A stretch of DNA of 64,000 nucleotides from positions 15,858-79,857 of the forward strand of contig JAUQPW010000007.1 in the NCBI GenBank assembly GCA_030550175.1, written 5' to 3'. This DNA comes from a bacterium. GTDB taxonomy: Bacteria; Moduliflexota; Moduliflexia; Moduliflexales; JAUQPW01. Shown here piece after piece: positions 15,949 to 55,914 of this stretch. The notes below the pieces were generated by a model. The model ran no database searches. It was not told the origin of the DNA and saw nothing but the letters and a program-made list of their open reading frames with translations. The position numbers and the translations under genes are program-made. How positions within the stretch are numbered: position 1 is the stretch's first letter; each line of letters starts with the position of its first letter.

Positions 15949-16010
15949 GGGTAATCACCAGATGGAGATCTTCTATTCTTTGGGATGGATGTCTTCTTTT
16001 GTGAACGGGG

Positions 16011-16502: not shown

Positions 16503-16525
16503 GGATGAAACCTTGGATCAATCCC

Positions 16526-20405: not shown

Positions 20406-20629
20406 AATTAATCCATGAACCCTTCATTCTGAATAATTAACCCGTTATATTAAATACCCTGAGCCCTACAGGCTGTGAAATCCGACCTTGTCTTTATAAA
20501 CAAGCGGTTACTTTGGAGTTAAAAGCTCAGGAGACAGGTTTTTAACCTGACCCCCTTTCCCCTCCCCCAACTTGGGAAGGGGAGTCCGCCGGAACTTTTC
20601 CGATAAGTTAACAGGTTCGGGTTAATTAT

Positions 20630-21796
20630 TCAGGATGAAGGATTCATTACAGAGATCCTCCTTAGCTTTTCCACCACAGGTGGAAAGGTCTCTATCACAA
20701 CGTCGATATCTTCTTCTCTGGTGTAAATTCCGGTTGAGAAAAGCAGTGAACCCTCCGCCAGTTCCAAAGGAATCCCCATGGCTTTCAGAACATGGGAGGG
20801 TTTCCTGGCCGTAAAGGTACAGGTGGAGCCTGGAGAAACCGCAATTCCCTTCCTGTCGAGAAGCAAAGTCAGGGCATCCCCCTTCACACATTCAACACAA
20901 AGACTCAGATAATGGGGAAGTCTTTGGGTAGGATGACCGTTTAAGTAAAGACCCGATACTTTCTTTAACAGGGCATCCCCCAGCCGATTCCGTAAAAACA
21001 AAATATGATCTATTCGTTGGGTCATTTCTTTTCTGGCCAGTTCTGCCGCTTTTCCAAGCCCTACAATACCTGAAATATTTTCGGTACCTGCCCGCCGTCC
21101 TTCTTCCTGCATACCACCATGGATCAACGGAGAAATTCTTACACCTTCTCGAATGTACAAAGCTCCGACCCCTTTAGGACCGTAGAATTTATGTCCTGAA
21201 AGACTCAGTAAATCAACCCCCAGGGTGTCTACATCTACCGGTAAAATACCCACTACCTGTGTGGCATCGGTATGAAAATAAATCCCCTTCTCTCGGGTAA
21301 TCCGACCGATTTCTGCTATGGGTTCCAAGGTTCCCACCTCATGGTTCCCGTACATGATGGATACCAAAATCGTTTTCTCTGTAATTGCTCCGGCAATTTC
21401 TTCGGGATCAACCATTCCATATTTGTTTACGGGTACGTAGGTCACCGTAAATCCCAGTTTTTCCAGAAATTTAAGGGCATAAAGTACCGATTGGTGTTCG
21501 ATCTGAGAAGTGACGATATGGGTTCCTTTCTTCTGATTCGCAAAGGCTACTCCTTTAATAGCAAAATTATTGGCCTCTGTACCACCCGAAGTAAAAACAA
21601 TCTCCTCTGACCTGGCTCCAATGAGGAGGGCAACCTGATGCCTGGCTTCTTCTAGAGCTTCCCGAGGTTTTTTACTTTCTTCATAAAGACTTCCAGGATT
21701 CCAGAAAAATTCACCAAGGTAAGGAAGCATCGCCCCCCTCACTTCAGGATGCATAGGCGTCGTTGTGGCATAATCTAAATAAATTTTCTTCATCAT
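20630..21796 (-). CDS. cysteine desulfurase (NifS/IscS class V aminotransferase)
   Basis: 388 aa. MMKKIYLDYATTTPMHPEV…, FTSGGTEANN, SLSGHKFYGPKGVGALY (PLP-Lys), and the C-terminal active-site Cys region. Confidence 0.9.
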   Translation of the reverse strand: MMKKIYLDYATTTPMHPEVRGAMLPYLGEFFWNPGSLYEESKKPREALEEARHQVALLIGARSEEIVFTSGGTEANNFAIKGVAFANQKKGTHIVTSQIEHQSVLYALKFLEKLGFTVTYVPVNKYGMVDPEEIAGAITEKTILVSIMYGNHEVGTLEPIAEIGRITREKGIYFHTDATQVVGILPVDVDTLGVDLLSLSGHKFYGPKGVGALYIREGVRISPLIHGGMQEEGRRAGTENISGIVGLGKAAELARKEMTQRIDHILFLRNRLGDALLKKVSGLYLNGHPTQRLPHYLSLCVECVKGDALTLLLDRKGIAVSPGSTCTFTARKPSHVLKAMGIPLELAEGSLLFSTGIYTREEDIDVVIETFPPVVEKLRRISVMNPSS

Positions 21797-26748: not shown

Positions 26749-28293
26749 ATGCTTTGCTCTTCTTTCCTTACGACTATGTGGATATTTTTATTATTTGCTT
26801 TACTGTTATCCCCCTTTTCTGCTCTAGGAGCGGATTCAAAATCGATTCCTATGGGTTATGAGGAAGCCCGACATCTGCTCAATCGAACTTCCTTCGCTGC
26901 CGATGAGGATCAGGTTCGAGAATTTGCCGGGTTGACCCGGGAACAGGCTGTAGACAGGCTTTTGAGTTCTATTCGGACCCGAGCTCAAACTCCCCCTCCG
27001 GAATGGGTCGATGAAGTCATATCCCTCCGAAGAATTCGAAGTATGAATAAAGAAGAGCGGGAAAATCTCCGCAAGCAGTATCGTAGATATGGAATTGAAC
27101 TGCGGGCGTGGTGGTATCAAGAAATGTTATCGACCCCTTCACCCTTCACCGAAAAGATGACTTTGTTCTGGCATAACCACTTTACCTCCAGCCTGCAAAA
27201 AGTTAAAGTACCCCAGTTCATGTATCATCAAAATGTACTCCTGCGGCAATACGCCTTAGGGAACTTTGGCGAGATGCTCCACGCGGTTTCTAAAGATCCT
27301 GCTATGATCGTCTATCTGGACAATGTCTCTAACCGTAAAGGCCAGCCCAATGAAAACTTTGCCCGAGAAGTGATGGAGTTGTTTACTCTGGGAGAAGGTC
27401 ACTACACCGAACAAGACGTCAAAGAAGCCGCACGGGCTTTTTCCGGCTGGAGTCTGGACCGTGAAACCGGACGGTTCCACTTTTATCCTCACCTGCACGA
27501 TGAGGGTTTAAAAACTATCCTCGGTCAGACAGGTAATTTCGATGGGGACGCTGTGTTGGATATTCTTTTGTCTAAACCTCAAACCGCGGAGTTTATTACC
27601 ACCAAACTCTGGCGTGAGTTTGTTTCACCTACCCCTAACCCTGGAGAAGTTAAACGCATAGCAGCGTTATTTCGGGACAGTCATTATGATATCAAGACTT
27701 TAATGCGGGCCTTATTAACCTCTGAGGATTTCTATGCCAAAGAGAATCGGGGGGTTTTGATCAAGTCCCCGGTGGAGTTTATTGTGGGTACACTCCGTCA
27801 ATTTAATATCCAACCTTCGGATATGCGTCCGCTTGCGTTTGTTGCCCGTCAACTGGGACAGGATATTTTTATGCCACCCAATGTAAAAGGATGGCTTGGG
27901 GGCGAAAGCTGGATCAACAGCAACACCCTGTTGATCCGTAAACAATTACTGGACCGTTTATTCCGGGCCAGGGAAATGCCAGATGAGTCCGGTCCTATCC
28001 TTGAAAGATTGGCCATGGAAAATTCCATAGCCCTTCAATCCGATTCGGACTCAAAACCGAATTCTCCCTCTGACCGGGAGCAGAGGAGGATGATACGACT
28101 TCAACGGGCTCTAAACCTTCAGTTTGATAGCGACACCTGGTGCGCTCAATTCGAGGGGGACCTCACAGAAAAGCAGAATCACATGACCAAACTCCTTCTG
28201 GCGATAGAACCCTTACAAAAACCCCAACCCACAACCGATTGTATTGAATTTATCCGTCAACTGGTTTTAGATCCGGTTTATCAACTCAAGTAG
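26749..28293 (+). CDS. DUF1800-family protein
   Basis: 514 aa with a signal peptide. It is paired with a downstream DUF1501 gene, as is typical in Planctomycetes/Verrucomicrobia-like genomes. Confidence 0.65.
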   Translation: MLCSSFLTTMWIFLLFALLLSPFSALGADSKSIPMGYEEARHLLNRTSFAADEDQVREFAGLTREQAVDRLLSSIRTRAQTPPPEWVDEVISLRRIRSMNKEERENLRKQYRRYGIELRAWWYQEMLSTPSPFTEKMTLFWHNHFTSSLQKVKVPQFMYHQNVLLRQYALGNFGEMLHAVSKDPAMIVYLDNVSNRKGQPNENFAREVMELFTLGEGHYTEQDVKEAARAFSGWSLDRETGRFHFYPHLHDEGLKTILGQTGNFDGDAVLDILLSKPQTAEFITTKLWREFVSPTPNPGEVKRIAALFRDSHYDIKTLMRALLTSEDFYAKENRGVLIKSPVEFIVGTLRQFNIQPSDMRPLAFVARQLGQDIFMPPNVKGWLGGESWINSNTLLIRKQLLDRLFRAREMPDESGPILERLAMENSIALQSDSDSKPNSPSDREQRRMIRLQRALNLQFDSDTWCAQFEGDLTEKQNHMTKLLLAIEPLQKPQPTTDCIEFIRQLVLDPVYQLK

Positions 28294-28374
28294 TCCGGAA
28301 AGGAGGAGTGGAAGAAAGAAACCAGGTTGATTTTAATTCCAGGTTTCTGACTCCTGACTCCTGAAACCCGATAT

Positions 28375-29535
28375 ATGAATCGCCGTGATTTTCTTAAAGT
28401 TTTAAGCCTGACTCCCTTTATTTCTTATATCCCTGATCTATCCTTTGCCATCACACCTCAGGCCAACTGGAATAATTTACTTGTCTTACTGGAACTGAAA
28501 GGAGGAAATGATGGATTAAATACGGTTATCCCCTATACCGATCCGACCTATTATGACCTGCGGCCTCGACTCGGAATCACCCGGGATAAGGTCCTACAAC
28601 TGGATGAGAAAGTGGGTTTCCATCCGGCCCTGGAAGCTTTAATGCCATTGTGGAAAAATCGCGAGTTAGCCGTAATTCAGAGTGTGGGTTATCCAGAACC
28701 GAATCTTTCTCATTTTCGTTCCATTGAAATCTGGGAAACAGCTTCCAATAGCAATCAATACTTATCAGAAGGTTGGTTATCTCGGGTTTTTACGGCTTAC
28801 CCTCCTCCTAAAACTTTTGCTGCCGATGCAATCGTGGTGGGGGATTCTGATCTGGGACCTCTGGGTGGAGGTACCGCCCGAGTGGTTGTACTTTCCAATA
28901 TTCAAAGATTCCTGACCCAGGCTAAACAAAATGGTATCCCCAACGGCAGGCCTGCCAATCCGGCATTGGCCCATATTCTCAAAGTTGAGGAAGATATTCG
29001 TCAGGCGGCCGAGGGTTTGAAAACCTCTGACACACTTAAAACCGAGTTCCCCAACTCTCCTTTTGGAAATGCTTTAAAAACCGCATCTCGGGTTATTGCA
29101 GGTAATTCAGGTATCGCCGTTATCAAGGTTTCTTTAGATGGATTCGATACCCACAGCAATCAATTCAACCGGCAAGAACGTTTACTCCGTGAGATGGCTG
29201 AAGGTCTAAGCGCTTTCAGGGAAGCATTGATGGAAATCAACCGTTGGAATTCGACCCTTATCATGAGCTACTCGGAATTTGGCCGCAGACCCAGGGAAAA
29301 CTTAAGTACCGGCACAGACCATGGCACGGCCAATGTTCATTTCATGTTGGGTGGACGTGTGAAAGGAGGTCTATACGGTCAGATCCCTCAACTTAAACCA
29401 TTGGAAGGAGACAATCTCCGCTTTGCCATAGATTTTCGTAGCCTGTATGCAACCGTTATAGAAAAGTGGTGGGGCCTCAACGCAAGCCCCGTGTTAGGAA
29501 GGAAATTTGGGGTGTTGGATATATTAAAAGTTTAA
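28375..29535 (+). CDS. DUF1501-family (sulfatase-like fold) protein with Tat signal
   Basis: MNRRDFLKVL twin-arginine motif. 386 aa. Canonical partner of DUF1800. Confidence 0.72.
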   Translation: MNRRDFLKVLSLTPFISYIPDLSFAITPQANWNNLLVLLELKGGNDGLNTVIPYTDPTYYDLRPRLGITRDKVLQLDEKVGFHPALEALMPLWKNRELAVIQSVGYPEPNLSHFRSIEIWETASNSNQYLSEGWLSRVFTAYPPPKTFAADAIVVGDSDLGPLGGGTARVVVLSNIQRFLTQAKQNGIPNGRPANPALAHILKVEEDIRQAAEGLKTSDTLKTEFPNSPFGNALKTASRVIAGNSGIAVIKVSLDGFDTHSNQFNRQERLLREMAEGLSAFREALMEINRWNSTLIMSYSEFGRRPRENLSTGTDHGTANVHFMLGGRVKGGLYGQIPQLKPLEGDNLRFAIDFRSLYATVIEKWWGLNASPVLGRKFGVLDILKV

Positions 29536-30724: not shown

Positions 30725-32218
30725 TTAACCGATTTCCCTTAACTCTGTTTTTTTAATCTTACCTGTTTCGGTTCTGGGGAGCTTATCACAGATAATAATA
30801 TATTTGGGTCTTTTGATCGGACTTAAGCGATCAATACAGAATCTCAGGATTTGATCGGAATTCAGATAGAAACCTTCTTTAGGAACTATATAAGCCTGGA
30901 TGGCTTCCCCTAACCATTCATCCGGTACTCCGACTACAGCACATTCTGCAACTCCTTCATGATTGATCAAAACAGCCTCAATCTCAGAGGGGTGGATATT
31001 TTCGCTGCCACTCTTAATCAAGTCTTTTTGGCGCCCTACCAGATATAAATAACCTTCTTCATCTATCCACCCGAGATCTCCGGTGTGAATTCCGTCTTCT
31101 TTAAAAACCTGCCGGGTTGCTTCCTCGTTTTTATAATACCCTATGGCCCTATGATCACACCGAATAACAATCTCTCCTTCAGACCCTTCTTTTCCCTTTG
31201 CAAGGTGGACCTGCACCTCCGGAATAATGCTCCCACAAGATCCTGCTTTTTCTTGAAGTTTTTCCGGAGGTAAAACTGTGACCAGACCCACTTCGGTCAG
31301 GCCATAGGTCAGATAAATATCTACCCGGGGAAAAGCCTCATGAAGGTTCCGGATTAGTTGGGGTGTAACCTGGCCTGCTCCGATTCGGAAGTATCTTAAA
31401 GAAGTTAAGGTGTAACGCCGGATATCACCCCGGGATAATAAGGTGTGGTAAACTGTTGGTACCGCCGAGAGTCCCGTAACTCGCTCTGCTTCCATGGAGG
31501 CCAGAACCGAGTTCGGGGAAAGAAAATTCCGCTCCAGAATTACGGTGGCCCCAACCATGAGATGGGCCAGGAGAAAAATTTTATTCATCCCGAAAAATAA
31601 AGGAAGAACAAGGGAAGTTCGATCTCTAGACGAGATTTGGAAGTATTTAATATTCAACTCCGCATTCCGGATAAGATTCTTGTGGGGAAGAAGTACACCT
31701 TTAGGAATCCCTGTAGTTCCAGAAGTGTAATTGATACAGGCAATAGAAGACGAATCCTTTCCTTTACTTCGATTCTCCGGTTCTTCCCTTCTCCCATTCT
31801 CCCCTTCTGTGATTTTCCCCCACTCATTGATTAATAAAATGGTAAGAGATTCAAACTGATTTGAAATTTGCTCCCATAAAGCCCTTTGAATCTTCTCGGT
31901 AATAAATATTTTAATCTCGCACTGCCGGACAATGCAGGTGATTTCCTCGGGTTTAAGGGATGGGTTTATGTCTACAACGATACCTCCCGTCTTCCAGACG
32001 GCAAAAAAGGCCAGAACCAGTTCCGGGGAGTTCCAGCAACAAATTCCAATTCTTTCCCCCGGCATTGCTCCTCTTCGAATAAGGTCATAGGCTAGCCGAT
32101 TTGTCTGTTCCTCAAGTTCTCGATAGGTGTAGCGGATTCCGTGTGAAATCAGTGCTGTTGCCTCTGGAAACCGATTTGCGCTCTGATTCAGCAAGTCTGC
32201 TAAGGTTTTTACAGACAT
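30725..32218 (-). CDS. AMP-forming acyl/aminoacyl ligase (ANL superfamily, DltA/FadD-like)
   Basis: 497 aa. A3 core YTSGTTGIPKG, the TYGLTE motif, and the C-terminal PKTETGKIKK lysine motif. Confidence 0.85.
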   Translation of the reverse strand: MSVKTLADLLNQSANRFPEATALISHGIRYTYRELEEQTNRLAYDLIRRGAMPGERIGICCWNSPELVLAFFAVWKTGGIVVDINPSLKPEEITCIVRQCEIKIFITEKIQRALWEQISNQFESLTILLINEWGKITEGENGRREEPENRSKGKDSSSIACINYTSGTTGIPKGVLLPHKNLIRNAELNIKYFQISSRDRTSLVLPLFFGMNKIFLLAHLMVGATVILERNFLSPNSVLASMEAERVTGLSAVPTVYHTLLSRGDIRRYTLTSLRYFRIGAGQVTPQLIRNLHEAFPRVDIYLTYGLTEVGLVTVLPPEKLQEKAGSCGSIIPEVQVHLAKGKEGSEGEIVIRCDHRAIGYYKNEEATRQVFKEDGIHTGDLGWIDEEGYLYLVGRQKDLIKSGSENIHPSEIEAVLINHEGVAECAVVGVPDEWLGEAIQAYIVPKEGFYLNSDQILRFCIDRLSPIKRPKYIIICDKLPRTETGKIKKTELREIG

Positions 32219-32285
32219 AGAGTTCGTAACAGGTTATCTCTCTCAACCCCGCGGGGAAGGAGAAGAAGGTAAAGAAATTCTGATC

Positions 32286-34139
32286 TCACACATTAAAAAC
32301 TTTGTGCCACCGTTCTAGAAAATAGAGACGGATCAAGGCATAATGTTTCTGGGTAAAAAGACCCGATGAACCTTCCTGGAAAGATGCCAGGAAAGCGTTT
32401 AACTTTTCTCTATTGAAATAAGCCTCGATGGCGAGATGGGGTTGTTTCAAAGAAGCCAGCATCGTGTTTATCAATTCCTGGACCTCGAAGGGAGGAGGCA
32501 TGGGACTTTTCTTGCGGGTAAGAATGGCTTCCGGAAAATCCGGTAGATACTTCCGAATCATTTGTTTTAAAAAATGTTTTTCATCGGATTTTTGAGTTTT
32601 AATCTCACCCGGAAGATTTAGTACCCACTCTACCAACCGATGGTCCAGAAAGGGAACGCGAACTTCTACCGAGGAGGCCATGCTATGACGGTCTTCAATC
32701 TCCAGCATTTCGTGAAGATGCAATTTAACGAATACATAACTCAGCTTGTTAAAGAAATCCGATGTCTTAGCCCTGGTCAGGTACTCTTCAAACCGGTCCT
32801 GATGGACTTCCCAGTAGAGGGTTTCCCACCGAAATTCATCGGTAACCAGGGTTTCTAAGAAGTCCACGGCACTGATGGGATAACCCGGTTTTCTCGGATC
32901 TGTACGCCAGATCCAGGGAAAGAACATGGTATTCTGTCGGTCCTTCCTTTGTAACCAGTAGTAATAACCTCCAAAAAGTTCATCGGACCCCTGTCCGGAT
33001 AAAAGAACCCGAACCTTTTGAGAAGCTTCCTGATTTAACCGAAAGTGACCATATTCCGAAAGGGTAACCAGAGGTTTTTCCCGATGCCAGATCATTCGGT
33101 CAATTGCTTCACAAAGTGAATCTGTAGGGAGAATATAGAGATGATGATCCGTCTTAAGCTCTCGGGCGAAAAGCGACGCATAATAAGTATCATCCCCCCG
33201 GACTTCCCCTACGATACGATGGGGGTTCTGTTTAAAAACCTCGGTATTTCGGGTATATCCGATGTTAAAGGTCTTTAAAAAAGGATGATACTTCAGGGCG
33301 AGTGCCGTCACAAGGCTTGAATCCAGACCCCCACTTAAACAGGCTCCCAACGGGACATGGGAAAATAACTCATGGTGGACAGACTCATCCAAAAGATTGT
33401 AGAGGTTCTCCAGGTCCCCCTCACCCCGATTTCGGGTTTTCCAGGTCCGGTATCCCATTTCTGAAAAAGGTACATCCCAGTACTCTCGAATTTTTAAACC
33501 CTTCCTGGAAACTTCCAGAAAATGGCCCGGACTTAAGGCATGAATACCCCGAAATAGGGTGTTGGAAACCAAAGGGAATCCGCAGAACAGATACTCTGCT
33601 ACGGCTTCGGGGTTTACTCCTATCGGATGATCGGATTGGGTTAAGATAGCCTTGATTTCTGAGGCAAAGACAAATTTACCGGACTTCATCCAATAGAACA
33701 AAGGCTTTATTCCCAGACGATCCCGTGCCAGAAAAAGCTTCTCCTGTTTCTCATCCCATATGGCAAAGGCAAACATTCCATTCAAAAGATGGAGGCAATC
33801 GGTTCCATACGCTTCATACGCCCGAAGGATAACTTCTGTATCGCTCTCGGTCCTAAAACAATATCCCCGTTTTTCCAAATTTTCTCGGATTTCTCGGTGA
33901 TTGTAAATTTCTCCATTGAATACAATCCACAGGGACTGTTCCCGATTCGATAAAGGCTGAGCTCCTGACTCTAAATCGATAATGGAAAGCCGCTGACTTC
34001 CCAGTCCTATAAACTCTCGAAAGTAAATTCCATCCTGATCCGGTCCTCGATGAGCCAGGGCACGATTCATAGATCGAAGAATCTCAGGATTGACCTTTTC
34101 CGAGTGATCGGTGATAAAAATTCCAGAAATTCCACACAT
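32286..34139 (-). CDS. asparagine synthetase (glutamine-hydrolysing) family amidotransferase, paralog 1
   Basis: 617 aa. N-terminal MCGISGIF with the Ntn Cys2 nucleophile, and an SGGLDSS PP-loop in the synthetase domain. Confidence 0.9.
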   Translation of the reverse strand: MCGISGIFITDHSEKVNPEILRSMNRALAHRGPDQDGIYFREFIGLGSQRLSIIDLESGAQPLSNREQSLWIVFNGEIYNHREIRENLEKRGYCFRTESDTEVILRAYEAYGTDCLHLLNGMFAFAIWDEKQEKLFLARDRLGIKPLFYWMKSGKFVFASEIKAILTQSDHPIGVNPEAVAEYLFCGFPLVSNTLFRGIHALSPGHFLEVSRKGLKIREYWDVPFSEMGYRTWKTRNRGEGDLENLYNLLDESVHHELFSHVPLGACLSGGLDSSLVTALALKYHPFLKTFNIGYTRNTEVFKQNPHRIVGEVRGDDTYYASLFARELKTDHHLYILPTDSLCEAIDRMIWHREKPLVTLSEYGHFRLNQEASQKVRVLLSGQGSDELFGGYYYWLQRKDRQNTMFFPWIWRTDPRKPGYPISAVDFLETLVTDEFRWETLYWEVHQDRFEEYLTRAKTSDFFNKLSYVFVKLHLHEMLEIEDRHSMASSVEVRVPFLDHRLVEWVLNLPGEIKTQKSDEKHFLKQMIRKYLPDFPEAILTRKKSPMPPPFEVQELINTMLASLKQPHLAIEAYFNREKLNAFLASFQEGSSGLFTQKHYALIRLYFLERWHKVFNV

Positions 34140-34197
34140 AACTGAAAGTCTAAAGTTTAAAATTCGAAACCTCTTATAATTTCCTTAATTTGAAGCT

Positions 34198-34674
34198 TCA
34201 AACTTTTGGACTTTGGACTGAATAGGCAACGCAGGTGTTTCGAACCGAGAGTCGATGCTGCTCCAGGAAAGCTATTTTCTCTTCAGGGGGATACGGCTGT
34301 TGGGGATTACCCATTTCCATACACTTCTTGGCTAAAAGCCCTTGAACCGAGATATGACAGGCGTCCAATATAAGGTTGGTGAGATGAGTACATCCTTCCT
34401 TTCCACCGATTTGCTTCTCCAAAAGAAAGGCCAGACCTGGCTTGACCTGGAGTCCCACACATTTAGATAGCTGGGTCAGAGCGGTGGGACAGACAGGATA
34501 AGGCGTTTGATTTATCCAGGGTTTAATCGAAACGATCACCAGATCCGGATATTGGAAGATCACTTCGACCCCCATATCATGGAAAGAATCTTTCATACTT
34601 ACCGTTACAACAAACCGGTTTTCCGGGTTGTCCCAGAGAACTTTATAATCTTTTTTTCGATGAAAAAGCTCCAT
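34198..34674 (-). CDS. hypothetical protein (158 aa) between the AsnB and ligase genes
   Basis: Tightly packed in the operon. Contains several Cys (CPTALTQLSKC, CTHL). No family recognised. Confidence 0.35.
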   Translation of the reverse strand: MELFHRKKDYKVLWDNPENRFVVTVSMKDSFHDMGVEVIFQYPDLVIVSIKPWINQTPYPVCPTALTQLSKCVGLQVKPGLAFLLEKQIGGKEGCTHLTNLILDACHISVQGLLAKKCMEMGNPQQPYPPEEKIAFLEQHRLSVRNTCVAYSVQSPKV

Positions 34675-34692
34675 ATTCTCCCATTCTCCCGT

Positions 34693-36426
34693 TCACTTCA
34701 GTAAAGACTTTTGGGTCTTACCCAATACGGTCTTGGGAAGGGAATCCGAGAATTCAATCACTTTAGGTACTTTAAAAGATTCCAGGTAACGGGCGCAGTA
34801 CCCAATCAATTCATGGGGGTCGGGTGGAAATTTAGGATCACAAACGACCCAGGCTTTTACCACTTCCCCTAAGAGTCCGGCCGGATCCGGGATTCCTGTC
34901 ACCGCAACTTCTCTAACCGCCGGATGCTTACGCAAGACGGCTTCTATTTCCTCTGGACTGATCTTCTTTCCCCCGCTGTTAATCAATTCATCTGCACGAC
35001 CCAGTAAGAAGAGATAGTTTTCTGAATCTAACCAGCCATAATCCGGGGTCAAAAGAGTTCCATCGGACCGCAAGCATTGCCGCGTAAGATCTGGCCGGTT
35101 CCAATAACCTTTCATAATCATAGAACTTTTAACCGCTACACGACCGGGTTTGTTAACCCCTACAGGCTGACCCTGCTCATCTAAAATCGAAAGTGTTACG
35201 CCTGGATAAGGCTGTCCTACGGAACCCGCTTTCCAATCCGGTTCGGTGACTTCTCGAAAACACACCCGACTGACTTCTGTAAGACCATAGGTTACAAATA
35301 ACCGCGTGGTCGGTAAAGCTGTTTTGAGTTGGGTGAGGAGAGAAGGAGGAGCCGGTGAAGTACCCAGGGTAATATACCGCAGATGCTTTTGGCACCTTTT
35401 CAACATGGATTCATAGCGATCCATAAAAAGCCTTAATCCACCGGGAACTCCGGAGAATCCTGTAACCTGTTCCTCATGAAATTGCTTTAAAACCTGGGCC
35501 GGGTAGGTCAAATTCTTTGCCAGGATTAAAGTTCCTCCTGCACGCAGACAACCATCTATCTCCCGGAGTCCGTAGAGATGGAAAAGAGGGACCAGAATTC
35601 CAATTCGATCCCGAGGAGTCAATTTCAGAAACTCCTTTCCAGTCTCTGCAATAACCTCTAAATTTCCATGGGTCAGCATAACCCCCTTTGGTTGTCCGGT
35701 TGTTCCACTGGTATAAATAATAGCGGCCAGATCATCTCCAGTGATCGGGGCTTCAAAGGGATACTTTTTATCGGTTATGTCCTGTTGTTTCCTTTGTTCC
35801 GGGCGTTCAAATAAGCTCTTACCCCCCTTTTTCCTCTCTGGCCCTCCGACATCCCTCTGCATGCCGGGGGGATTGGGAGAATTAGGGAAAGCGAGGAGGT
35901 GGGAGGATGAAGGGAATCCAGGGGAGTCTATCGAAGTACTCGTAAAAAAACTACCTTTGAAAGCCGCAACCGGAGGATGAGGATGCGAGATCCGGAAGGC
36001 GCGGGAATATGAAGACAGAAAGAAAATTTCCACGCCGTTTTCTCCCAGGGCTATGGGATCCCCAAAACCCAGAGAGATCAGATTTACGGTATGGGAATGG
36101 ATTCGCTTTTCCAGGAACAACGCTTTGGGTGAACAATCTTCAAGGGTATGGGTTAAGGCTTCTAAGGGCATGGAGGGGTTTAAAGGAACGACCACTCCTC
36201 CAACTTGAAGGATAGCGAGATAAGCTATCACAAAGTCTGGAGAATTATCCAGGAGCAGACAGACGCGATCTCCCAGGGATATTCCGTTTTGTTGTAAAAT
36301 GTTGGCAAGTTGATCTACTGAAGTATCTAACTGAGCATAGGTAAGGCGATACTCTTCCTGGACTACCGCTTCTTTTCCTGGAGAAAGAATCCTGTATTGT
36401 TTTAAAAAATCGTGTAATCTGTCCAT
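34693..36426 (-). CDS. AMP-forming ligase (ANL superfamily) with a roughly 110-aa low-complexity insertion
   Basis: 577 aa. Core motifs YTSGTTGQPKG, YGLTE and PKTVLGKTQK. A Pro/Ser/Gly-rich insert (…SHPHPPVAAFKGSFFTSTSIDSPGFPSSSHLLAFPNSPNPPGMQRDVGGPERKKGG…) sits upstream of the A3 motif. The start overlaps the ACP stop. Confidence 0.8.
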   Translation of the reverse strand: MDRLHDFLKQYRILSPGKEAVVQEEYRLTYAQLDTSVDQLANILQQNGISLGDRVCLLLDNSPDFVIAYLAILQVGGVVVPLNPSMPLEALTHTLEDCSPKALFLEKRIHSHTVNLISLGFGDPIALGENGVEIFFLSSYSRAFRISHPHPPVAAFKGSFFTSTSIDSPGFPSSSHLLAFPNSPNPPGMQRDVGGPERKKGGKSLFERPEQRKQQDITDKKYPFEAPITGDDLAAIIYTSGTTGQPKGVMLTHGNLEVIAETGKEFLKLTPRDRIGILVPLFHLYGLREIDGCLRAGGTLILAKNLTYPAQVLKQFHEEQVTGFSGVPGGLRLFMDRYESMLKRCQKHLRYITLGTSPAPPSLLTQLKTALPTTRLFVTYGLTEVSRVCFREVTEPDWKAGSVGQPYPGVTLSILDEQGQPVGVNKPGRVAVKSSMIMKGYWNRPDLTRQCLRSDGTLLTPDYGWLDSENYLFLLGRADELINSGGKKISPEEIEAVLRKHPAVREVAVTGIPDPAGLLGEVVKAWVVCDPKFPPDPHELIGYCARYLESFKVPKVIEFSDSLPKTVLGKTQKSLLK

Positions 36427-36428
36427 GT

Positions 36429-36701
36429 TTATTGAATTCCAAACTTCTCTCCAAGGTACCTCATTACGGCTTCTAAGGAGCCAAAGTTTTCAGGCAGGAT
36501 ATCTTCCCCTGGAATTTTGATCTTACAGAGTTTTTCAATAAACACAACAAAATCCAGAAGAGAAAGGGAATCAAAGATCCCTTGATCGATAAAGGAGTCT
36601 GTACTTTGAAGGGTGGTGATCCCCTTCCCCTGTAAAGCCGGCAGGCTCAGAAGATAATTTTCGAGTGCCTGTACTACTTTTGTGGGTTGTTCGTTGATCA
36701 T
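36429..36701 (-). CDS. acyl/peptidyl carrier protein (DltC/ACP-like)
   Basis: 90 aa with the phosphopantetheine-attachment Ser in GIFDSLSLLDF. Confidence 0.7.
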   Translation of the reverse strand: MINEQPTKVVQALENYLLSLPALQGKGITTLQSTDSFIDQGIFDSLSLLDFVVFIEKLCKIKIPGEDILPENFGSLEAVMRYLGEKFGIQ

Positions 36702-36805
36702 TCTTTGTTGTTCCCGGTTTAATTTTTTATCGTCCGTTATCTGTTATCTGCCGTCTTTAGCTATAGAAAAACAACAGGCAACAGGGTAACGGGGTAACAG
36801 GTCAA

Positions 36806-38038
36806 TCAACCGAAAAATAGGCGCTGATAAGCCTGGAGTGTTACTTCCAACGGCTTACCGGTGATTCCATCCCAAAAACTTCGATGAATAAGGGCTATAA
36901 ATGAAAAGGTAAGAGCAATTTTTAAAGCTAAAAGGAGGGTTCTCATCCCAGGACTCTTCACTTTAAGAGAAAATTCTTTTATCCAGGGGGTTTGGGAAAT
37001 CTTTGAAATAATAGCGACGGCTAAACCAAAGGATCCAAAGGCCAGGGTTATTTGAATGGTAGCGTCCAGGGTTATGGCCGGCGTAACCAGAAGATGCCAG
37101 AGACCGCTGACTAAAAAGGTCGTTATGATTTTAGCAGTTATCTGCGTATGCCTCCAGAAGGGATAAAAAACATGGGTCATCAGCCATCGATAAGTCGAAA
37201 TGTTGGAAGTTTTCCAGTACTGGACAGGGCTGGAGGACAGAAGTGGATTTGCAAAATTTTCATAAAGATTAAATCCTAGAATTCGAGACAGGGCAATAGC
37301 CATATCTGTAAAGCCGGAGAAAGCCCAATAAAAGCGAATTAAAAGCAGACAGAAAGTACCCCATACAAAAAGCCTCGGATCCAGGTGTTGAAGAAAAGGG
37401 TGATGGATAGAACCCTCTGCCCATTGTTGCAGTTTATTGTAGAGATTCTGAGAGTAAGGAGCCAAAACAAAAAACTTAATACCTCCCCAGATCATTTTAA
37501 GGAGGTTATAAGGAACCAGTTGGGACCAGTTAGAAATCTGGGGTTGATAGCTTTTATAAAAATCATTGAACGAAACCACGGGTCCGGCGAATAGAGTAGG
37601 AAGAAAAAATATATAAAGGAGAAACTGATTGAATCGATCCCAACCGGTTAAAGAGGTTTTAGGGCGTTTACTGAGGGCAAAGTCTATGCTTCGAAGCAGG
37701 AAAAAGGCTTCTATTCCCTGGCGACCCCAGAAAACGTACTTGATAGCCGGTCTGGGAAATTGGTATTTAAGAAAAACAAAAGCGGCTAAAACTCCCAAAA
37801 CCAAAATCAGCTTTTGATTTCGGGTCCAGTTTGTTTCCCCGATGAGATAGACGGTCAGGGCCGTCAGGGTAAATATTAGAAAATTTAACGGGGGAAACAG
37901 CCACAAAAGGGCTCCCAGGCTAATAAAGAGCATGGAGTATTCGCGAACCTGGAATTTTCCCATCCATTCCGATGAAGGCTTTGCCGGAGTTACGTAAAAA
38001 ATCGGAGTTGTTGTCAGGAGACCGGTGAGATTTTTCAT
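36806..38038 (-). CDS. membrane-bound O-acyltransferase (MBOAT; AlgI/DltB family)
   Basis: 410 aa polytopic protein. MBOAT signatures FLPTLFAGPV and SGLWH (catalytic His). It overlaps the upstream AsnB gene by 4 nt. Confidence 0.75.
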   Translation of the reverse strand: MKNLTGLLTTTPIFYVTPAKPSSEWMGKFQVREYSMLFISLGALLWLFPPLNFLIFTLTALTVYLIGETNWTRNQKLILVLGVLAAFVFLKYQFPRPAIKYVFWGRQGIEAFFLLRSIDFALSKRPKTSLTGWDRFNQFLLYIFFLPTLFAGPVVSFNDFYKSYQPQISNWSQLVPYNLLKMIWGGIKFFVLAPYSQNLYNKLQQWAEGSIHHPFLQHLDPRLFVWGTFCLLLIRFYWAFSGFTDMAIALSRILGFNLYENFANPLLSSSPVQYWKTSNISTYRWLMTHVFYPFWRHTQITAKIITTFLVSGLWHLLVTPAITLDATIQITLAFGSFGLAVAIISKISQTPWIKEFSLKVKSPGMRTLLLALKIALTFSFIALIHRSFWDGITGKPLEVTLQAYQRLFFG

Positions 38039-39852
38039 ACCTTAAAAACCCGATGCAAAAGTTCCAGGGTTAAAAGATACATGGAAATCTGCCACTGGGT
38101 GAGCAGATCTACTTCTTCGAACTCATTTTTTCTTTCTAAGAAATCCTCTAATTGAGAACGGTCGAAATAGGAAATAGCCCTTGAGTTTGGGCTTAAAAGG
38201 AGATCTCGGGTGAGCTGGAGTTGGTTGAACACCGATTGTGGATCCCGGGGTATGGGCATATGGGTTTTTTTTCGGTAAAGGATGGAATCCGGAAGAAAGC
38301 CCCGGAGCATTTTTTTGAAGATATATTTACTCTGGCCGTTTTTAACTTTTAATTTTGAAGGCATAGGTGCCAGGAGCTCAACCAATCGGTGATCCAGAAA
38401 AGGAGGTCGTGTTTCCACCCCAAAAGCCAGGGAGGTTCGGTCATGGAACTCTAAAAGCTCCAGAAGGAAGAACTTTAAATACAGATAAAGGGCCTGATAT
38501 AAGATATCCTGGTTAGAAACCCGGATCAGGTGGTCTGACAACTTTTGATAGAAGAGTTCTTTGGGTCTGATCGCCTTGCGAAACTCCTGGGAAAAGAGTT
38601 TGAGCATAACTTTCCAGGAAGGAGCCCAGGGAAAGTAGGTAATCTGTTGGGTTTTTAAAATATCATCCAGACCCAAACCTCGCGATCCCAGATACCCGGC
38701 CAGGAGTTCATCGGCACCTTCTCCACAGAGAACTACGGTGGCATAATTCTTAAGCTTTTCATAGAGGAGGTACATGGTGGCAGCCCCTTTATTAAAGGGT
38801 CTTTCTAAATGCCAGGTCAACCGTTCCAGGGTAGAAAAATAGATTTCCGGAGAGATTAAAAATTCATGATGTTTCGTTCCCAACGTTTGGGCGACGATTC
38901 TTGCATAGGTGGCATCATGGTCTTCCCCTTTCCAGGGATTTGGGAAGTCAATGGTAAAAGTCTGCAAGGGGCCGGATAGCATCTGGCCGGCCCAGGTTGC
39001 GATACTGCTGGAATCTGTACCTCCGCTGAGTAAAACACCTAACGGAACTTCCCCGACCAACCGGAGCCGGACGGCATCTTTAAGGAGTTCCATGAGGTGT
39101 TGCCCGTAATACTTTTCCGCCTCTTCCCCTTTAAGAGGAACGGATGGGGTTGCCTCTGGAGAAGGAATTTCCCAGTACTTGTTCAAACGATAATGAAAAC
39201 CGGGCCGACCCGTATGGGCCATGGCGGTTAAGGTATAGCCCGGAGGAAGGGTCCATATCCCCTTAAACATGGTATGGGCTTCTAAAAGGGTCCCACAAAG
39301 AAGTACCTCGGCAACGGCTTCCGGATTAATATCCGGGGAAATGGCAGGATGCTCTAAAATGGCTTTAGCTTCCGATGCAAAAATAAATTGCCCATCGGCT
39401 ATGGTATAGTGAAGAGGAACAATGCCCATCCGATCCCGGGCCAGAAAAAGTTTTTTTCCGGGATGATCCCAAATGGCAAAGGCAAACTGGCCGTTAAATT
39501 GTTCTACACAATCCTCTCCGAAAGCTTCATAGGCATGTAAAACGACTTCCGTGTCTGAATCTGTTTTAAAACGATATCCCCGGCTTTTCAGAAGACGTTG
39601 AAGCTGTCGATAATTAAAAATTTCCCCGTTGTACGTGATCCAGATCGATCCATCTTCATTGGACATGGGTTGACGCCCGTATTCACGATCGATAATGGAT
39701 AGTCGCCGGTTTCCCAAACCTACCCGGTTGTTAAGATAGATGCCTGCATCGTCAGGACCTCGATGGCGCTGAATTTCATTCATTTTTTCCAGGGTTTCTA
39801 CCTCAACAGGCTTATCTAAAGCAAAATTAAAGATTCCACTAATACCACACAT
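38035..39852 (-). CDS. asparagine synthetase (glutamine-hydrolysing) family amidotransferase, paralog 2
   Basis: 605 aa. MCGISGIF N-terminus and an SGGTDSS PP-loop. Confidence 0.9.
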   Translation of the reverse strand: MCGISGIFNFALDKPVEVETLEKMNEIQRHRGPDDAGIYLNNRVGLGNRRLSIIDREYGRQPMSNEDGSIWITYNGEIFNYRQLQRLLKSRGYRFKTDSDTEVVLHAYEAFGEDCVEQFNGQFAFAIWDHPGKKLFLARDRMGIVPLHYTIADGQFIFASEAKAILEHPAISPDINPEAVAEVLLCGTLLEAHTMFKGIWTLPPGYTLTAMAHTGRPGFHYRLNKYWEIPSPEATPSVPLKGEEAEKYYGQHLMELLKDAVRLRLVGEVPLGVLLSGGTDSSSIATWAGQMLSGPLQTFTIDFPNPWKGEDHDATYARIVAQTLGTKHHEFLISPEIYFSTLERLTWHLERPFNKGAATMYLLYEKLKNYATVVLCGEGADELLAGYLGSRGLGLDDILKTQQITYFPWAPSWKVMLKLFSQEFRKAIRPKELFYQKLSDHLIRVSNQDILYQALYLYLKFFLLELLEFHDRTSLAFGVETRPPFLDHRLVELLAPMPSKLKVKNGQSKYIFKKMLRGFLPDSILYRKKTHMPIPRDPQSVFNQLQLTRDLLLSPNSRAISYFDRSQLEDFLERKNEFEEVDLLTQWQISMYLLTLELLHRVFKV

Positions 39853-44410: not shown

Positions 44411-44954
44411 CGATAAGGATAGCTTGTTATATTTCAATCTGTCAGGCCCCTTCACTATAAAGAATCAGGCGACTCTATCTTAAAAAGACTCTCCTTCAAC
44501 AAGTTCATTGCTCAGGGCCCCCTCTTCGTAAATAAGTTTGAATTTTGTAGCTTGTCCTGATTTCTGACAAAACTCGATACTTTTTATAAGTATTGTTTTT
44601 TTTCCTGCTATATTAGGGTTCCTGTTTTAATTTTTGACATGGCTGAACTGTTTCACAAAGTCGGATTTATATTAAATAAGTGATCTTTCAAGCTCTATCC
44701 CAATGAGATTTTGTGATTTTGAAACTCTGGCATAAGAATTGCTTGTTTCTCTTATTTGAGACGACTTCAGAACTTCAAGGGAGAAAAGAGGAAGAAAAAA
44801 CTATACTTGTATTAACTGTTAGAGAATAATCCATAGGAAAAAGGATAAGTTGCGAGCTTATGGAGTCGTTTAAATCTCCTTTGATGGGAGGGGAGTAGGA
44901 GTCGCCCATGTTGTAGATTGCTTAAAAAATTATAAAACTCTTTGGAGGGACAAT

Positions 44955-45599
44955 ATGACAATTTTAACAGATAAAGACCGACAGGCAGTCCGTGACCGAC
45001 TGCAGGCCATGAGGGAACCAGTTAAGTTAGTATATTTCACCCAGGAGCTGGAATGTCCAACTTGTCGAGAGACAGGCCAGCTTCTCCGGGAGCTTAGTGA
45101 GCTATCAGAAAAACTCCCCCTCCAGGTTTACAATTTCCAGCTTGATCGGGAGCAGGTGGATCGATACAAAATTGACAAAATTCCTGCAACAGTCGTAATA
45201 GGAGCAAAAGACTACGGCATTCGTTTTTATGGGATGCCCTTAGGTTACGAATTTGCCACTCTATTGGAAGCTATCCTCGCTGTCTCTCAGGGAAAGTCAA
45301 ATTTGAGCCCGAAAAGTATAGAACGACTGCGGGCGGTAAAAGTACCCCTTCACCTTCAGGTCTTTGTAACCCCTACCTGACCCTACTGTCCAGCTGCGGT
45401 GCGGTTGGCACACCAGTTCGCTTTGGAGAGTGACTTTATTACGGCTGATATGGTGGAGGCTACAGAGTTTCCTCACCTGGTTCAGCGTTACGGTGTTCGG
45501 GGTGTGCCCAGAACAGTGGTCAACGAGAGTGTATTTATTGACGGGGCCTTACCCGAAGAGATGTATCTTAGCCGGGTATTGGAGGCCACTACTCCATAA
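44955..45599 (+). CDS. two-domain glutaredoxin-like protein disulfide oxidoreductase (Pyrococcus PDO / TIGR02187-like) with an in-frame TGA (candidate selenocysteine) at 45378-45380, giving a UPYC motif in the second unit
   Basis: ORFs 44955..45380 and 45399..45599 are in the same frame and separated only by TGA. The first unit has CPTC (VYFTQELECPTCRETGQLL). Around the TGA the sequence reads LQVFVTPT-[TGA]-PYCPAAVRLAHQFALESDFITADMVEATEFP…VPRTVVNESVFIDGALPEEMYLSRVLEA. This is nearly collinear with P. furiosus PDO (VFVTPTCPYCPRAVRMAHKFAIE…DMVEAIEYP…). A possible hairpin (gcggtgcggttggcacacc) begins about 15 nt downstream of the TGA. Confidence 0.62.
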
Positions 45600-45746
45600 A
45601 CAGAGGGCAAAGGAGGTTTATTATATCAGCTGTAAGTGTGACTATCATCGTCAGACTATATCCTGAGCCTTATCCATCATATCCCGAATGCCTGGCTTCT
45701 TCACCATGTGAGGATTACATCCAAGGTTGAAGAAGGGCTAAATTTT

Positions 45747-46538
45747 ATGGAAGATATCCCCATCCAGAACCTGTTGGAGGGGACATCCAGGGCAAATCCC
45801 GTTTTTCCCTGGTTTCCTTTACCAGAGGTTCTTTTATTGGGAAACGATGAAGTCCATGTCTGGCGTGTGGCCCTGAACGTGGAGATTTCGTATCTACACA
45901 ACCTGCAGTGGCTTCTCTCGGCGGATGAGCAGGTCCGGGCTAAGCGTTTTTACTTTCAGAAACATCGTGAATACTTTATCCTCACACGTGGATTGCTAAG
46001 GATGATCCTTGGACGTTATCTGGAGAAGGAACCGGGCCAATTGCAATTTGGTTATAGGCCTTATGGAAAGCCCTATCTCATAGGAGAATTTAGCCACAGG
46101 AGATTGCGTTTCAACTTAGCTCATTCCCATGGACTTGCCCTTTATGCCATTACACAAGGTCGAGAAGTTGGGGTGGATATTGAATATATCCGACCTCATC
46201 CGGCCAATATGCAGATAGCGCATCGGTTCTTTTCACCCTGTGAAGTTATGGCTTTGAAGGCCCTTCCCTCCCATCTGCAACAGGAAGCATTCTTTAATTG
46301 CTGGACTCGTAAAGAAGCTCATATAAAGGCCAGAGGAATGGGTCTTTCGTTTCCTTTGAATCAATTCTCTGTATCCCTGGCACCCGGCGAGCCTGCCATT
46401 CTATTAAATGTCCTGGAAGATCCCCAAGAAACCTCCCGTTGGTCACTCCAGACGCTGGAACCGGGTCCCGGCTACGTGGCAGCTCTTGCCGTAGAAGGAC
46501 AGGATTGGCGGCTTAAATGTTGGCAGGTACAGGGATAG
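45747..46538 (+). CDS. 4'-phosphopantetheinyl transferase (Sfp type)
   Basis: Motifs VWRVAL, FNLAHSHG, GVDIEYI and WTRKEAHIKARG. The ORF track starts at 45708. The MEDIPIQ start at 45747 is more plausible. Confidence 0.82.
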   Translation: MEDIPIQNLLEGTSRANPVFPWFPLPEVLLLGNDEVHVWRVALNVEISYLHNLQWLLSADEQVRAKRFYFQKHREYFILTRGLLRMILGRYLEKEPGQLQFGYRPYGKPYLIGEFSHRRLRFNLAHSHGLALYAITQGREVGVDIEYIRPHPANMQIAHRFFSPCEVMALKALPSHLQQEAFFNCWTRKEAHIKARGMGLSFPLNQFSVSLAPGEPAILLNVLEDPQETSRWSLQTLEPGPGYVAALAVEGQDWRLKCWQVQG

Positions 46539-46596
46539 AGGGAGAGGCTTCCAGAACCCATCTCATTTTCTTTACCCCTTTAACCTCTCTTATTTA

Positions 46597-48585
46597 TTAC
46601 TCTGCACTCCGGACAGGGCTATCTAAATATTCTCGACACCAGAGTTCAAAAATCAAGAGGGCCCAGAGGTGCTGGCTGTAATCTTTAAGACCTTTTTGGT
46701 GTTCCTCGATAAGCAATCGGATATAATCCACGTTGAAAAGACCGCGTTCCCTTATGCGTTCTCCTAACAGGATATCTTCAAGTAAAGGCTTGAGATCTGT
46801 TCGAAACCACTCTAGCAGGGGTACTCCAAATCCATGTTTTCTTCTATGAATAATTTGAGAAGGAAGGATGCCGTGCAAGGCATGTTTGAAGATGTATTTG
46901 GTTGTAAGACCTTTCACTTTGAGATCTGAAGGGATCTGAGCCGCAAATTCTACCAGTTCATGGTCCAGATAAGGAACCCGACCTTCCAACGAAACCGCCA
47001 TGGTCATTCGATCCTCCTTGACCAAAAGATCATCCGGGAGAAGCGTGTGAAAATCGGCATATAAAGCCTTATCCAGATCTGACAGGTTGGAAGCCTTTCG
47101 ATAGTACTGAGTAATAATTTCGTCTGAAGGGCGTAATCCTTTAAAATGGGGAGAGGAGGGATTATAGAGGGCCTGCTTCATATCCTCGGTAAAGAAGGAA
47201 ATAGTGGTGATATGTCTTAGATTAGGGGGTAAGTTACGGCACTCCAGAAATCTTTTAAAAAACAGAAAATATTCTCCGAGACTGGAAGTTCGAGAAACGG
47301 GTAAGTGCTTCGAAATTTTCTCGAAGTAGTGTTGAAGCATAAGGGGAATCCGGCTGTAGTATCGAATCAAATTGTCGATCAAATAGCGTCGATAGCCTCC
47401 GAAAATCTCATCACCTCCCGTTCCTGAAAGAGCTACAATTACCTGCTCCCGAGCTAATCTGGCCAGATAATAGGTGGGAATGGCAGAAGGATCCGCAAAG
47501 GGTTCATCGAAATGCCGGATAAGCAACGGAATAATATCAATGGCTCGGGGTTCTACCTCAAATTCGTAGTGCTCTGTGGCAAATCGCTCGGACACTTGTT
47601 TGGCATATCGTCGTTCGTCATAATACCCGGCATTTTTAAATCCAACGGAGAAAGTCTTAATAGGCTGAATTTTACTGGCAAAGGCTACAATAGCACTGGA
47701 GTCAATCCCACCGCTCAGGAGGATTCCCACGGGGACATCGCTTACCAGATGACGTTTAACAGATTTTTGTAGGAGTTCTATTAAGCCTTCTGAGTAAAAC
47801 TTTTCATCCTTCGGACTTACAGGCAATCTTTTGATCTCCGGTACCTTATCGGGTCGATCTGCTTCTCTTAACCCCGAGGTAGGAGGGGTCGATCTATCCA
47901 CTCTACTCCCAACGGGCAAACTCCAATATCTCTGAAGGAAGATTTCACCGTTTTTATACTCCAGAACATACCCCGGTTGGAGCTTTTTGATTCCTTTAAA
48001 TATCGTATCCGGGCCTGGAATGTAGAGGTAGCTCAGGTAATTGTGCAAAGCCTGAAAATTAAGTTCTCTTTTAAAGGAAGGGTCCTGAAGAAGGGACTTA
48101 ATCTCAGAAGCAAAACAAAGTTTTTCCCGATCGATACGGTAAAACAGAGGCTTTATACCTATTCGGTCTCGAGCTAAAAAGAAAGCATGTTCCCGACTGT
48201 CCCACAAGGCAAAAGCAAACATTCCGTAGAGTTCACGGATACACTCTTTGCCCAGGTCCTCATAGAGGTGAACGATGACTTCTGTATCACTGAGGGTTTT
48301 AAATTTATGATTACGTTTTTCTAATTGTTCCCGAAGCTCCTTATAGTTATAAATCTCCCCGTTGAATACCACCCATACCGATCGATTTTCGTTACTGATG
48401 GGTTGGTGACCCCCTGTTACATCAATGACACTTAATCTCCGGACTCCCAGACCGACCTGACCCGACATGTAATAACCTTCATCGTCAGGTCCACGGTGTT
48501 TAAGAACCGAAGTCATCCGGCGCACAAGGTTTTTATCGATTTCTTTTTTTTCATTGAAATTAAGGACACCACATATACCACACAT
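46597..48585 (-). CDS. asparagine synthetase (glutamine-hydrolysing) family amidotransferase, paralog 3
   Basis: 662 aa. MCGICGVLNF N-terminus and an SGGIDSSA PP-loop. It overlaps or abuts the upstream TPR lipoprotein gene. Confidence 0.9.
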   Translation of the reverse strand: MCGICGVLNFNEKKEIDKNLVRRMTSVLKHRGPDDEGYYMSGQVGLGVRRLSVIDVTGGHQPISNENRSVWVVFNGEIYNYKELREQLEKRNHKFKTLSDTEVIVHLYEDLGKECIRELYGMFAFALWDSREHAFFLARDRIGIKPLFYRIDREKLCFASEIKSLLQDPSFKRELNFQALHNYLSYLYIPGPDTIFKGIKKLQPGYVLEYKNGEIFLQRYWSLPVGSRVDRSTPPTSGLREADRPDKVPEIKRLPVSPKDEKFYSEGLIELLQKSVKRHLVSDVPVGILLSGGIDSSAIVAFASKIQPIKTFSVGFKNAGYYDERRYAKQVSERFATEHYEFEVEPRAIDIIPLLIRHFDEPFADPSAIPTYYLARLAREQVIVALSGTGGDEIFGGYRRYLIDNLIRYYSRIPLMLQHYFEKISKHLPVSRTSSLGEYFLFFKRFLECRNLPPNLRHITTISFFTEDMKQALYNPSSPHFKGLRPSDEIITQYYRKASNLSDLDKALYADFHTLLPDDLLVKEDRMTMAVSLEGRVPYLDHELVEFAAQIPSDLKVKGLTTKYIFKHALHGILPSQIIHRRKHGFGVPLLEWFRTDLKPLLEDILLGERIRERGLFNVDYIRLLIEEHQKGLKDYSQHLWALLIFELWCREYLDSPVRSAE

Positions 48586-55155: not shown

Positions 55156-55914
55156 ATGACGCTGCAAGAAACTATATTGACTTCCCAAACCCGAGGGGTC
55201 AGGTGTAAGGATTGTGGAGACACGGGATGGCGGGTAAAACATCAAGGTCCTGTGGAAACTGTAGAGAGATGCACGTGCTACCGCATGAAGCGGAAAGAAC
55301 AACTTCTTCTAAGAGCTTGTATTCCGGAGAGATATATGCAATGCTCTTTGGAAAATTATAACCCACAACCTTACCCGGATTGTGATGCCTCCATAGGTCG
55401 TGCCAAAGTTCTGGTTGAGCAATTTGTAAAAGAATATCCGGCCCGGAAGATAGGATTGTTATTCATGGGAGGTTGTGGAGTCGGCAAAACCCATCTGGCG
55501 GTGGCCGCCATTAAATATCTCATTCTTGAAAAAGGTATTCCCTGTCTGTTCTATGATTTTAGAAATCTCATAAAGGAGTTGCAGAACTCTTATTCTCGAG
55601 ACTCCGAATATTCGGAATCTGATATTCTGGAGCCTGTACTATCCAGAGAAGTCCTTGTGTTAGATGAATTAGGGGCCAAAGTTATGAGTCCCTGGATACG
55701 GGATATCTTTACGCATATTCTCATTCAAAGGTATAACAACAATCTGGTTACCCTGATCACCTCTAACTGGATGGACGAAGAGGATCGAGGAATCCAGGAA
55801 GAAACTTTAGAGGAGCGTATTGGCTATCGGCTGCGGTCGCGACTCTATGAGATGTGCAAAACCATCGTGATAAAAGGGAAGGATTATAGAAAGTTTCGTG
55901 AGATTCGGAATTGA
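55156..55914 (+). CDS. DnaC/IstB-like AAA+ ATPase with N-terminal Cys-rich zinc ribbon
   Basis: CKDCGDTGW…CTC ribbon. Walker A GGCGVGKTHLAVAAI and Walker B VLVLDELG. Confidence 0.6.
   Translation: MTLQETILTSQTRGVRCKDCGDTGWRVKHQGPVETVERCTCYRMKRKEQLLLRACIPERYMQCSLENYNPQPYPDCDASIGRAKVLVEQFVKEYPARKIGLLFMGGCGVGKTHLAVAAIKYLILEKGIPCLFYDFRNLIKELQNSYSRDSEYSESDILEPVLSREVLVLDELGAKVMSPWIRDIFTHILIQRYNNNLVTLITSNWMDEEDRGIQEETLEERIGYRLRSRLYEMCKTIVIKGKDYRKFREIRN

Follow-up and report, generated by a model that had tools for sequence, protein, structure and literature searches.

A predicted selenocysteine-containing PDO-type protein disulfide oxidoreductase encoded across an in-frame UGA in an uncultured Gram-negative lineage

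In a 64,000-nucleotide stretch of DNA from an uncultured Gram-negative lineage (hereafter the window) we found that the gene at 44955–45599 on the + strand very probably encodes a functional selenocysteine (Sec) form of a PDO-type protein disulfide oxidoreductase, in which a Sec-UGA takes the place of the first Cys codon of the C-terminal CxxC motif and is followed by a bacterial SECIS hairpin. We considered this reading well supported because the TGA is invariant among the copies of the gene, selection acts downstream of it, there are at least 119 TGA loci of the same kind, and hairpins of the SECIS type are specific to the Sec forms.

An initial annotation of this region had described two ORFs in the same frame parted by a single TGA at 45378–45380, and both the ORF listing and the translation agreed: a single frame runs from an ATG at 44955 to a TAA at 45597–45599, and this TGA is the sole in-frame stop between them. 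The ATG-initiated ORF (44955..45380) encodes 141 residues, and a further 72 residues follow the TGA in frame up to the TAA, giving a complete CDS (44955..45599, +) for a predicted protein of 214 residues with Sec at residue 142, not the 208 residues first given for the read-through product. A Shine-Dalgarno sequence, GGAGGG, can be read at 44944..44949 (+), 5 nt ahead of the ATG. The CPTC motif that had been ascribed to the N-terminal unit was located at residues 34–37 (C34-P-T-C37; 45054..45065, +), where it aligns with CQYC of the Pyrococcus furiosus enzyme (PfPDO). The TGA itself (45378..45380, +) is the predicted Sec codon, U142, and is the first residue of U-P-Y-C (45378–45389), aligned with the first Cys of CPYC; the redox motif of the C-terminal unit, T-U-P-Y-C-P (residues 141–146), pairs with TCPYCP of PfPDO. 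The 544 nt upstream of the gene (44411–44954) had no ORF longer than 49 residues, carried indels between strains, and displayed no special conservation, and no credible Rfam match was found in this intergenic region (best E=0.24).

For profile searches we substituted Cys for the TGA/Sec position. The product matched the NCBIfam model TIGR02187.2 (PDO_seleno_TRX, "protein disulfide oxidoreductase") at 279.8 bits (E=1e-83; the curated cut-off is 185), and the match covered the whole profile (residues 6–211 on profile positions 2–209 of 209). Pfam gave Thioredoxin_3 in two stretches, plus Glutaredoxin. The best solved structures by phmmer were P. furiosus PDO 1A8L (E=3e-49, residues 2–211) and then P. 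horikoshii 1J08, followed by the Aquifex and Aeropyrum PDOs and, more distantly, by the N-terminal domain of AhpF. By sequence alignment the protein has two tandem thioredoxin-fold units that run approximately full-length with 1A8L, 1J08, 2YWM, 2AYT, and 2HLS. The collinearity with PfPDO that the initial annotation had noticed was thus borne out, end to end for TIGR02187.2 and far above chance (E=1e-83 and 3e-49). So too was its placement of the stop exactly at the first Cys of the CxxC, since in the phmmer alignment to 1A8L the TGA column is the first Cys of "vfvtptCpyCplavrmah"; the PfPDO motif it had quoted for comparison, CPYCPRAVRMAH (PRAVRMAH), was slightly wrong, and the actual sequence is CPYCPLAVRMAH. 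A search of ~5.8 billion proteins returned more than 7,800 homologues, with full-length CPYC proteins numbering in the thousands. All 15 of the full-length homologues that we retrieved and inspected (56–71% identical) have TCPYCP, with Cys at the TGA column, which answers the question raised earlier of whether relatives carry Cys at this codon. Also among the homologues was a 141-residue protein (P0046), 98% identical, ending in ...VTPT. Judged by these alignments, 44955–45599 is one gene, and it belongs to TIGR02187, the family known as PDO or "AhpF N-terminal domain homologue".

Contigs that encode P0046, P0122, or the 141-aa product of the window itself (P0121) gave us copies of the gene from 8 assemblies (Logan, ENA, and JGI), representing at least 7 samples. 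The copies differ from the window by 0–16 substitutions; codon 142 is TGA in all eight, and in each the frame stays open from there as far as the same TAA. Among the variable codons after the TGA, seven are synonymous and two conservative (L/M, S/T), a synonymous excess with a binomial p of ~0.001 against the neutral expectation of ~25% synonymous, and this showed that purifying selection acts downstream of the UGA. We considered it extremely improbable that the TGA reflects an error of sequencing or assembly, or that TGA has been reassigned to Trp or Gly throughout the genome: different samples assembled in Logan, ENA, JGI, and NCBI all show this TGA, and 14 of the window's 50 other large ORFs end in TGA, which shows that the code is standard and that there is no global recoding. 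These TGA stops coincide with the ends of family profiles (e.g., an Asn synthase ends at 516 of 517), and a scan of the window for further cases in which an in-frame TGA links two coding segments found none with coherent coding on both sides.

Another reading is that the UGA simply terminates translation, giving a 141-aa single-domain protein and possibly a separate C-terminal fragment that starts at GTG 45399 or further downstream. Public gene calls do give such a split, and the ORF listing includes a GTG-initiated 66-aa ORF at 45399..45599. In every public assembly that we found (e.g., L001 10001–10645 and L243 2001–2645) the gene is called as a 141-aa "glutaredoxin-like protein", accompanied in some assemblies by a 58-aa Thioredoxin_3 fragment. 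However, the ATG on which the 58-aa call depends reads TTG in the window, and we therefore regard the split as an annotation artefact; GTG 45399 has no Shine-Dalgarno sequence; and a C-terminal fragment would miss the first strand of the fold as well as the redox motif. Conservation extends over the P-Y-C-P-A-A codons that separate the TGA from the GTG, where the sole change is synonymous, and, TGA forms aside, a natural split at this place occurs in none of the thousands of homologues. Termination is therefore highly improbable. The Sec-PDO is systematically mis-annotated in metagenome data.

Returning to the Sec reading, we scanned one genome per species (GTDB) with the pattern GTN ACN CCN NNN TGA CCN TAY TGY CC. 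This search identified at least 119 loci with V-T-P-x-TGA-P-Y-C-P, about 115 of those listed being intact PDO homologues with an upstream domain of ~140–160 residues, the TGA, and a conserved in-frame C-terminal domain of ~72–80 residues; about four of the listed loci were chance matches or truncated. The hosts among the matches listed included many Anaerolineae, other Chloroflexota, Thermomicrobium, Sphaerobacter, and Ktedonobacter, as well as Alicyclobacillus tolerans, A. mengziensis, other Bacillota, Acidobacteriota, Ignavibacteria, and Gemmatimonadota. The nearest Sec forms among the matches listed were ~55–61% identical to the window protein, and the nearest Cys forms, taken from the full-length homologues, were 65–71% identical. 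With Cys forms reaching 71% and Sec forms only this lower range, Sec and Cys forms are interleaved.

The published bacterial SECIS (bSECIS) model (PMC13188914, Fig. 2A) has an apical loop of 3–9 nt with a G in its first two positions, an upper stem of 4–16 bp, a distance of 16–37 nt from the UGA to the loop, and an energy of -7.5 kcal/mol or lower. Two overlapping hairpins in the window each lie within all four constraints. The first, candidate A (45393..45417, +; -11.2 kcal/mol), has a 4-bp upper stem GUGC/GCAC, the loop GGUUG at 45403–45407 (+22 nt), and a 4-bp lower stem; it is the hairpin of the initial annotation, whose gcggtgcggttggcacacc does lie at 45396–45414 and does form the GUGC/GCAC stem with the GGUUG loop. 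The second, candidate B (45387..45412, +; -12.4 kcal/mol), has an 8-bp upper stem, 3 bp more past a 1-nt bulge, and the loop GGU at 45398–45400 (+17 nt). The earlier proposal that a hairpin beginning ~15 nt after the UGA serves as the SECIS therefore stands as far as the bSECIS constraints go, but this hairpin is one of two overlapping candidates and has a lower stem that relatives do not conserve. Similarly, the fold of 45378–45440 that had been suggested as a check contained bSECIS-compatible hairpins, but the fold was not exceptional (z=-1.46, with 17 of 200 shuffles folding equally well), and another hairpin of -10.9 kcal/mol occurs 180 nt upstream in the window gene. Rfam searches returned nothing relevant, either for the window (gathering thresholds) or for 45200–45700 (E≤10); as no SECIS family was among the matches, this is uninformative regarding a SECIS rather than negative.

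Candidate A was favoured in the 60-nt ensemble (P(24–32)=0.89). In the subgroup of eight sequences that share PAAVRLAH, 90.9% of cells were paired for candidate B, the changes (C-G to U-G, G-C to G-U) being confined to one side of the pair; for candidate A the upper stem was conserved and overall pairing was 76.6%, as its lower stem is not conserved. No doubly compensated base pairs were found in these eight sequences for either hairpin and shuffle controls were not exceeded, so we claim conservation here and not covariation. On these pairing figures, and with no double compensation for either, we list both candidates and lean slightly toward candidate B, or the G-rich core common to A and B, over candidate A as the SECIS.

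At the family level the Sec forms had at least three hairpin registers, in which the loop starts at +17, +21, or +22 nt from the UGA; CGUGGU at +17, AGGUU/AGGCU at +21, and GGU at +17 were the most frequent loops. Because of these several registers, RNAalifold with all Sec forms in one fixed register found 3 pairs only, and we therefore scored each sequence individually against the bSECIS model, with Cys-form and within-gene controls. We compared 116 Sec forms with 114 Cys forms, the latter being metagenome sequences that a scan picked out by the identical flanking pattern and that have the same local peptide. For the Sec forms the best hairpin had a median of -11.2 kcal/mol and 97% were at or below -7.5, whereas for the Cys forms the median was -5.6 kcal/mol, 34% were at or below -7.5, and 34 sequences had no candidate at all (Mann-Whitney p=1.3e-19; GC-adjusted effect -5.1 kcal/mol). 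Within the same Sec genes, five other offsets gave medians of -2.6 to -6.0, compared with -11.2 after the UGA (Wilcoxon p≤1.6e-15). Synonymous codon choice was also biased in the Sec forms: Val at nt 22–24 was GUG in 76% of them versus 31% of Cys forms, and Arg at nt 25–27 was NGG in ~83% versus fewer than 50% of Cys forms, a bias that fits the hairpin stems. We regard these comparisons as decisive that SECIS-model hairpins are specific to the Sec forms at the family level.

These results also bear on whether the gene could be a pseudogene, i.e., a Cys-type PDO gene in which a nonsense mutation changed TGY to TGA and the part downstream is now decaying. A change from TGT or TGC to TGA needs only a single base, the closest full-length homologues (65–71% identity) are Cys forms, and no Sec machinery was seen in the window. 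Specifically, ARAGORN reported 0 tRNAs and Rfam 0 hits at gathering thresholds for a tRNA-Sec in the 64-kb window; selA, selB, and selD were found neither in the 20 large window ORFs scanned with NCBIfam or Pfam nor in the precomputed Pfam hits on the syntenic contig L001; and no sel genes were found in the ~6 kb beyond the 3' edge of the window, results that weigh against the Sec reading as well. Against decay, the TGA is fixed in the 8 assemblies despite differences of 15–16 substitutions, and the downstream frame is intact with only the seven synonymous and two conservative changes. In addition, among the matches listed, ~115 other species have TGA at exactly this codon and intact domains beyond it, and the gene has a SECIS-model hairpin of the type that is specific to TGA forms. 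We therefore consider a pseudogene highly improbable.

For the Sec-PDO, we infer SelB-dependent decoding in the host, the redox partners, and a catalytic advantage of Sec. The mRNA stem-loop, with its G-rich apical loop (GGU or GGUUG) ~17–22 nt after the UGA at 45378, would recruit SelB with GTP and Sec-tRNA(Sec), such that the UGA would be read as Sec and not as a stop. The predicted product, a 214-aa protein with the sites C34-P-T-C37 and U142-P-Y-C145, would act as a cytoplasmic dithiol/disulfide carrier, on the analogy of PfPDO and of the N-terminal domain of AhpF. Sec142 would occupy the solvent-exposed nucleophilic position of the CxxC as the attacking residue and would presumably form a selenenyl-sulfide with C145. 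By the same analogy, the protein may be reduced by a thioredoxin-reductase-like flavoprotein and may pass electrons on to peroxiredoxins or substrate disulfides; in the window ORFs that we scanned, we identified neither a thioredoxin-reductase gene nor one for a peroxiredoxin.

We noted several other features of the window. Directly downstream of the PDO gene is a 4'-phosphopantetheinyl transferase gene (45708–46538). Three asparagine-synthase-like amidotransferases are encoded at 32286–34139, 38035–39852, and 46597–48585, in the same cluster as this gene, two acyl-CoA ligases (30725–32218 and 34693–36426), and an MBOAT protein (36806–38038), and the syntenic contig L001 has an additional small PP-binding gene in this stretch. 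The best NCBIfam matches for this cluster (30725–39852 and 45708–48585) included the exosortase/PEP-CTERM-associated models TIGR03108 and TIGR03098, below their cut-offs; the cluster looks like a lipid or exopolysaccharide modification locus. The window, whose G+C is 44%, also encodes an HPr kinase, RpoN, and an LptA-like protein (3616–9447). The window RpoN is 98% identical to a public MAG protein labelled "Candidatus Limnocylindrales" (Chloroflexota), a label that looks wrong; its next relatives (~50% identity) are from KSB3/Moduliflexus, Syntrophales, and Geotalea. A taurine-pyruvate-aminotransferase-like gene (13826–15235) lies near a TauD-family dioxygenase gene (16526–17419), and judging from these similarities 13826–17419 may be a sulfonate utilisation module. 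A class-V aminotransferase gene (cysteine-desulfurase-like, 20630–21796) adjoins that of a PP-loop ATPase (19356–20405) with distant similarity to MnmA/ThiI, far below cut-offs, and 19356–21796 may encode a putative sulfur (or selenium) relay for tRNA modification. There is also a DUF1800 / DUF1501 gene pair at 26749–29535. The 252-aa ORF at 55156–55914 has a counterpart with Pfam IstB_IS21 in L001, L002, and L247; the position of this IS21 helper-ATPase-like gene is kept in all related contigs, and no obvious IstA partner is listed adjacent to it.

The initial annotation was mistaken in supposing that no Sec-containing PDO-like two-domain glutaredoxin had been described, as both the model name PDO_seleno_TRX and a prediction credited to 2004 attest. 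A passage of a 2026 review (PMC13188914) credits prediction of the Sec-PDO family to Kryukov & Gladyshev 2004, and the review places the family among those "predicted with high confidence" and not among the experimentally verified ones. Passages on the family occur in PMC1794560, PMC9312934, and PMC13188914, Zhang et al. being among these sources. In literature tables the Sec-PDO is recorded in two genomes (2006) and in four Asgard sequences (2024; PMC11227280). The window protein and the known family have the same NCBIfam model, a single Sec, and the same position for it (the first residue of the C-terminal UxxC), and in both the SECIS is inside the coding region directly after the UGA. The known hosts are Firmicutes, Actinobacteria, and Asgard, whereas the host of the window is an uncultured Gram-negative lineage. 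Our matches indicate that the Sec-PDO is far commoner, and its SECIS placement more varied, than published tables indicate. The interleaving of Sec and Cys forms together with the varied registers suggests repeated Cys-to-Sec conversions, or else drift of the SECIS. We tentatively put forward, as a possibility that falls a little short of evenly balanced, that the Sec-PDO is far more widespread than the literature tables record (at least 115 species-level genomes, mostly Chloroflexota/Anaerolineae), uses at least three SECIS registers, and arose by repeated independent conversions at one codon, the window copy being one such event. If so, the window copy would represent a Cys-to-Sec conversion in a deep-branching uncultured Gram-negative lineage with no prior record of Sec use. 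For annotation, the split calls should be joined as one selenoprotein gene, and the host lineage can be marked as a probable selenocysteine user; the 116 Sec and 114 Cys forms, which share their local peptide, also provide a clean natural data set on a SECIS overlaid on conserved coding sequence.

Compared with the solved PDOs (1A8L, 1J08, and Aquifex 2AYT/2YWM), the window protein is collinear over its full length (E=3e-49 to 2e-44), with two thioredoxin-fold units, an N-site CxxC, and a C-site xPYC in common. The solved PDOs have CPYC where the window has the UGA, the N-site is CQYC in PfPDO versus CPTC in the window protein, and two short insertions of PfPDO (226 aa) are missing from the window protein (214 aa). 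The N-terminal domain of AhpF (1ZYN, 1HYU) has a homologous double thioredoxin fold (E=5e-11; TIGR03140 with 82.8 bits over residues 7–208) and, like the window protein, a redox-active CxxC in its second unit, and by analogy this likeness suggests that the window protein may shuttle electrons between a flavoprotein and a peroxiredoxin. However, the window protein stands alone, without the fused FAD/NADH domain of AhpF (83 versus the AhpF cut-off of 503 bits), and AhpF has neither Sec nor a CxxC in its first unit, where the window protein has CPTC. For the single-domain Sec-thioredoxins and Sec-glutaredoxins (UxxC; Geobacter, Treponema, and clostridia) the same chemistry is expected, with Sec as the attacking residue (PMC13188914), but these are one-domain proteins of other families (PF00085, PF00462) whereas the window protein has two domains. 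The window gene is thus a further member of a known selenoprotein family, the Sec-PDOs, and no new class of system.
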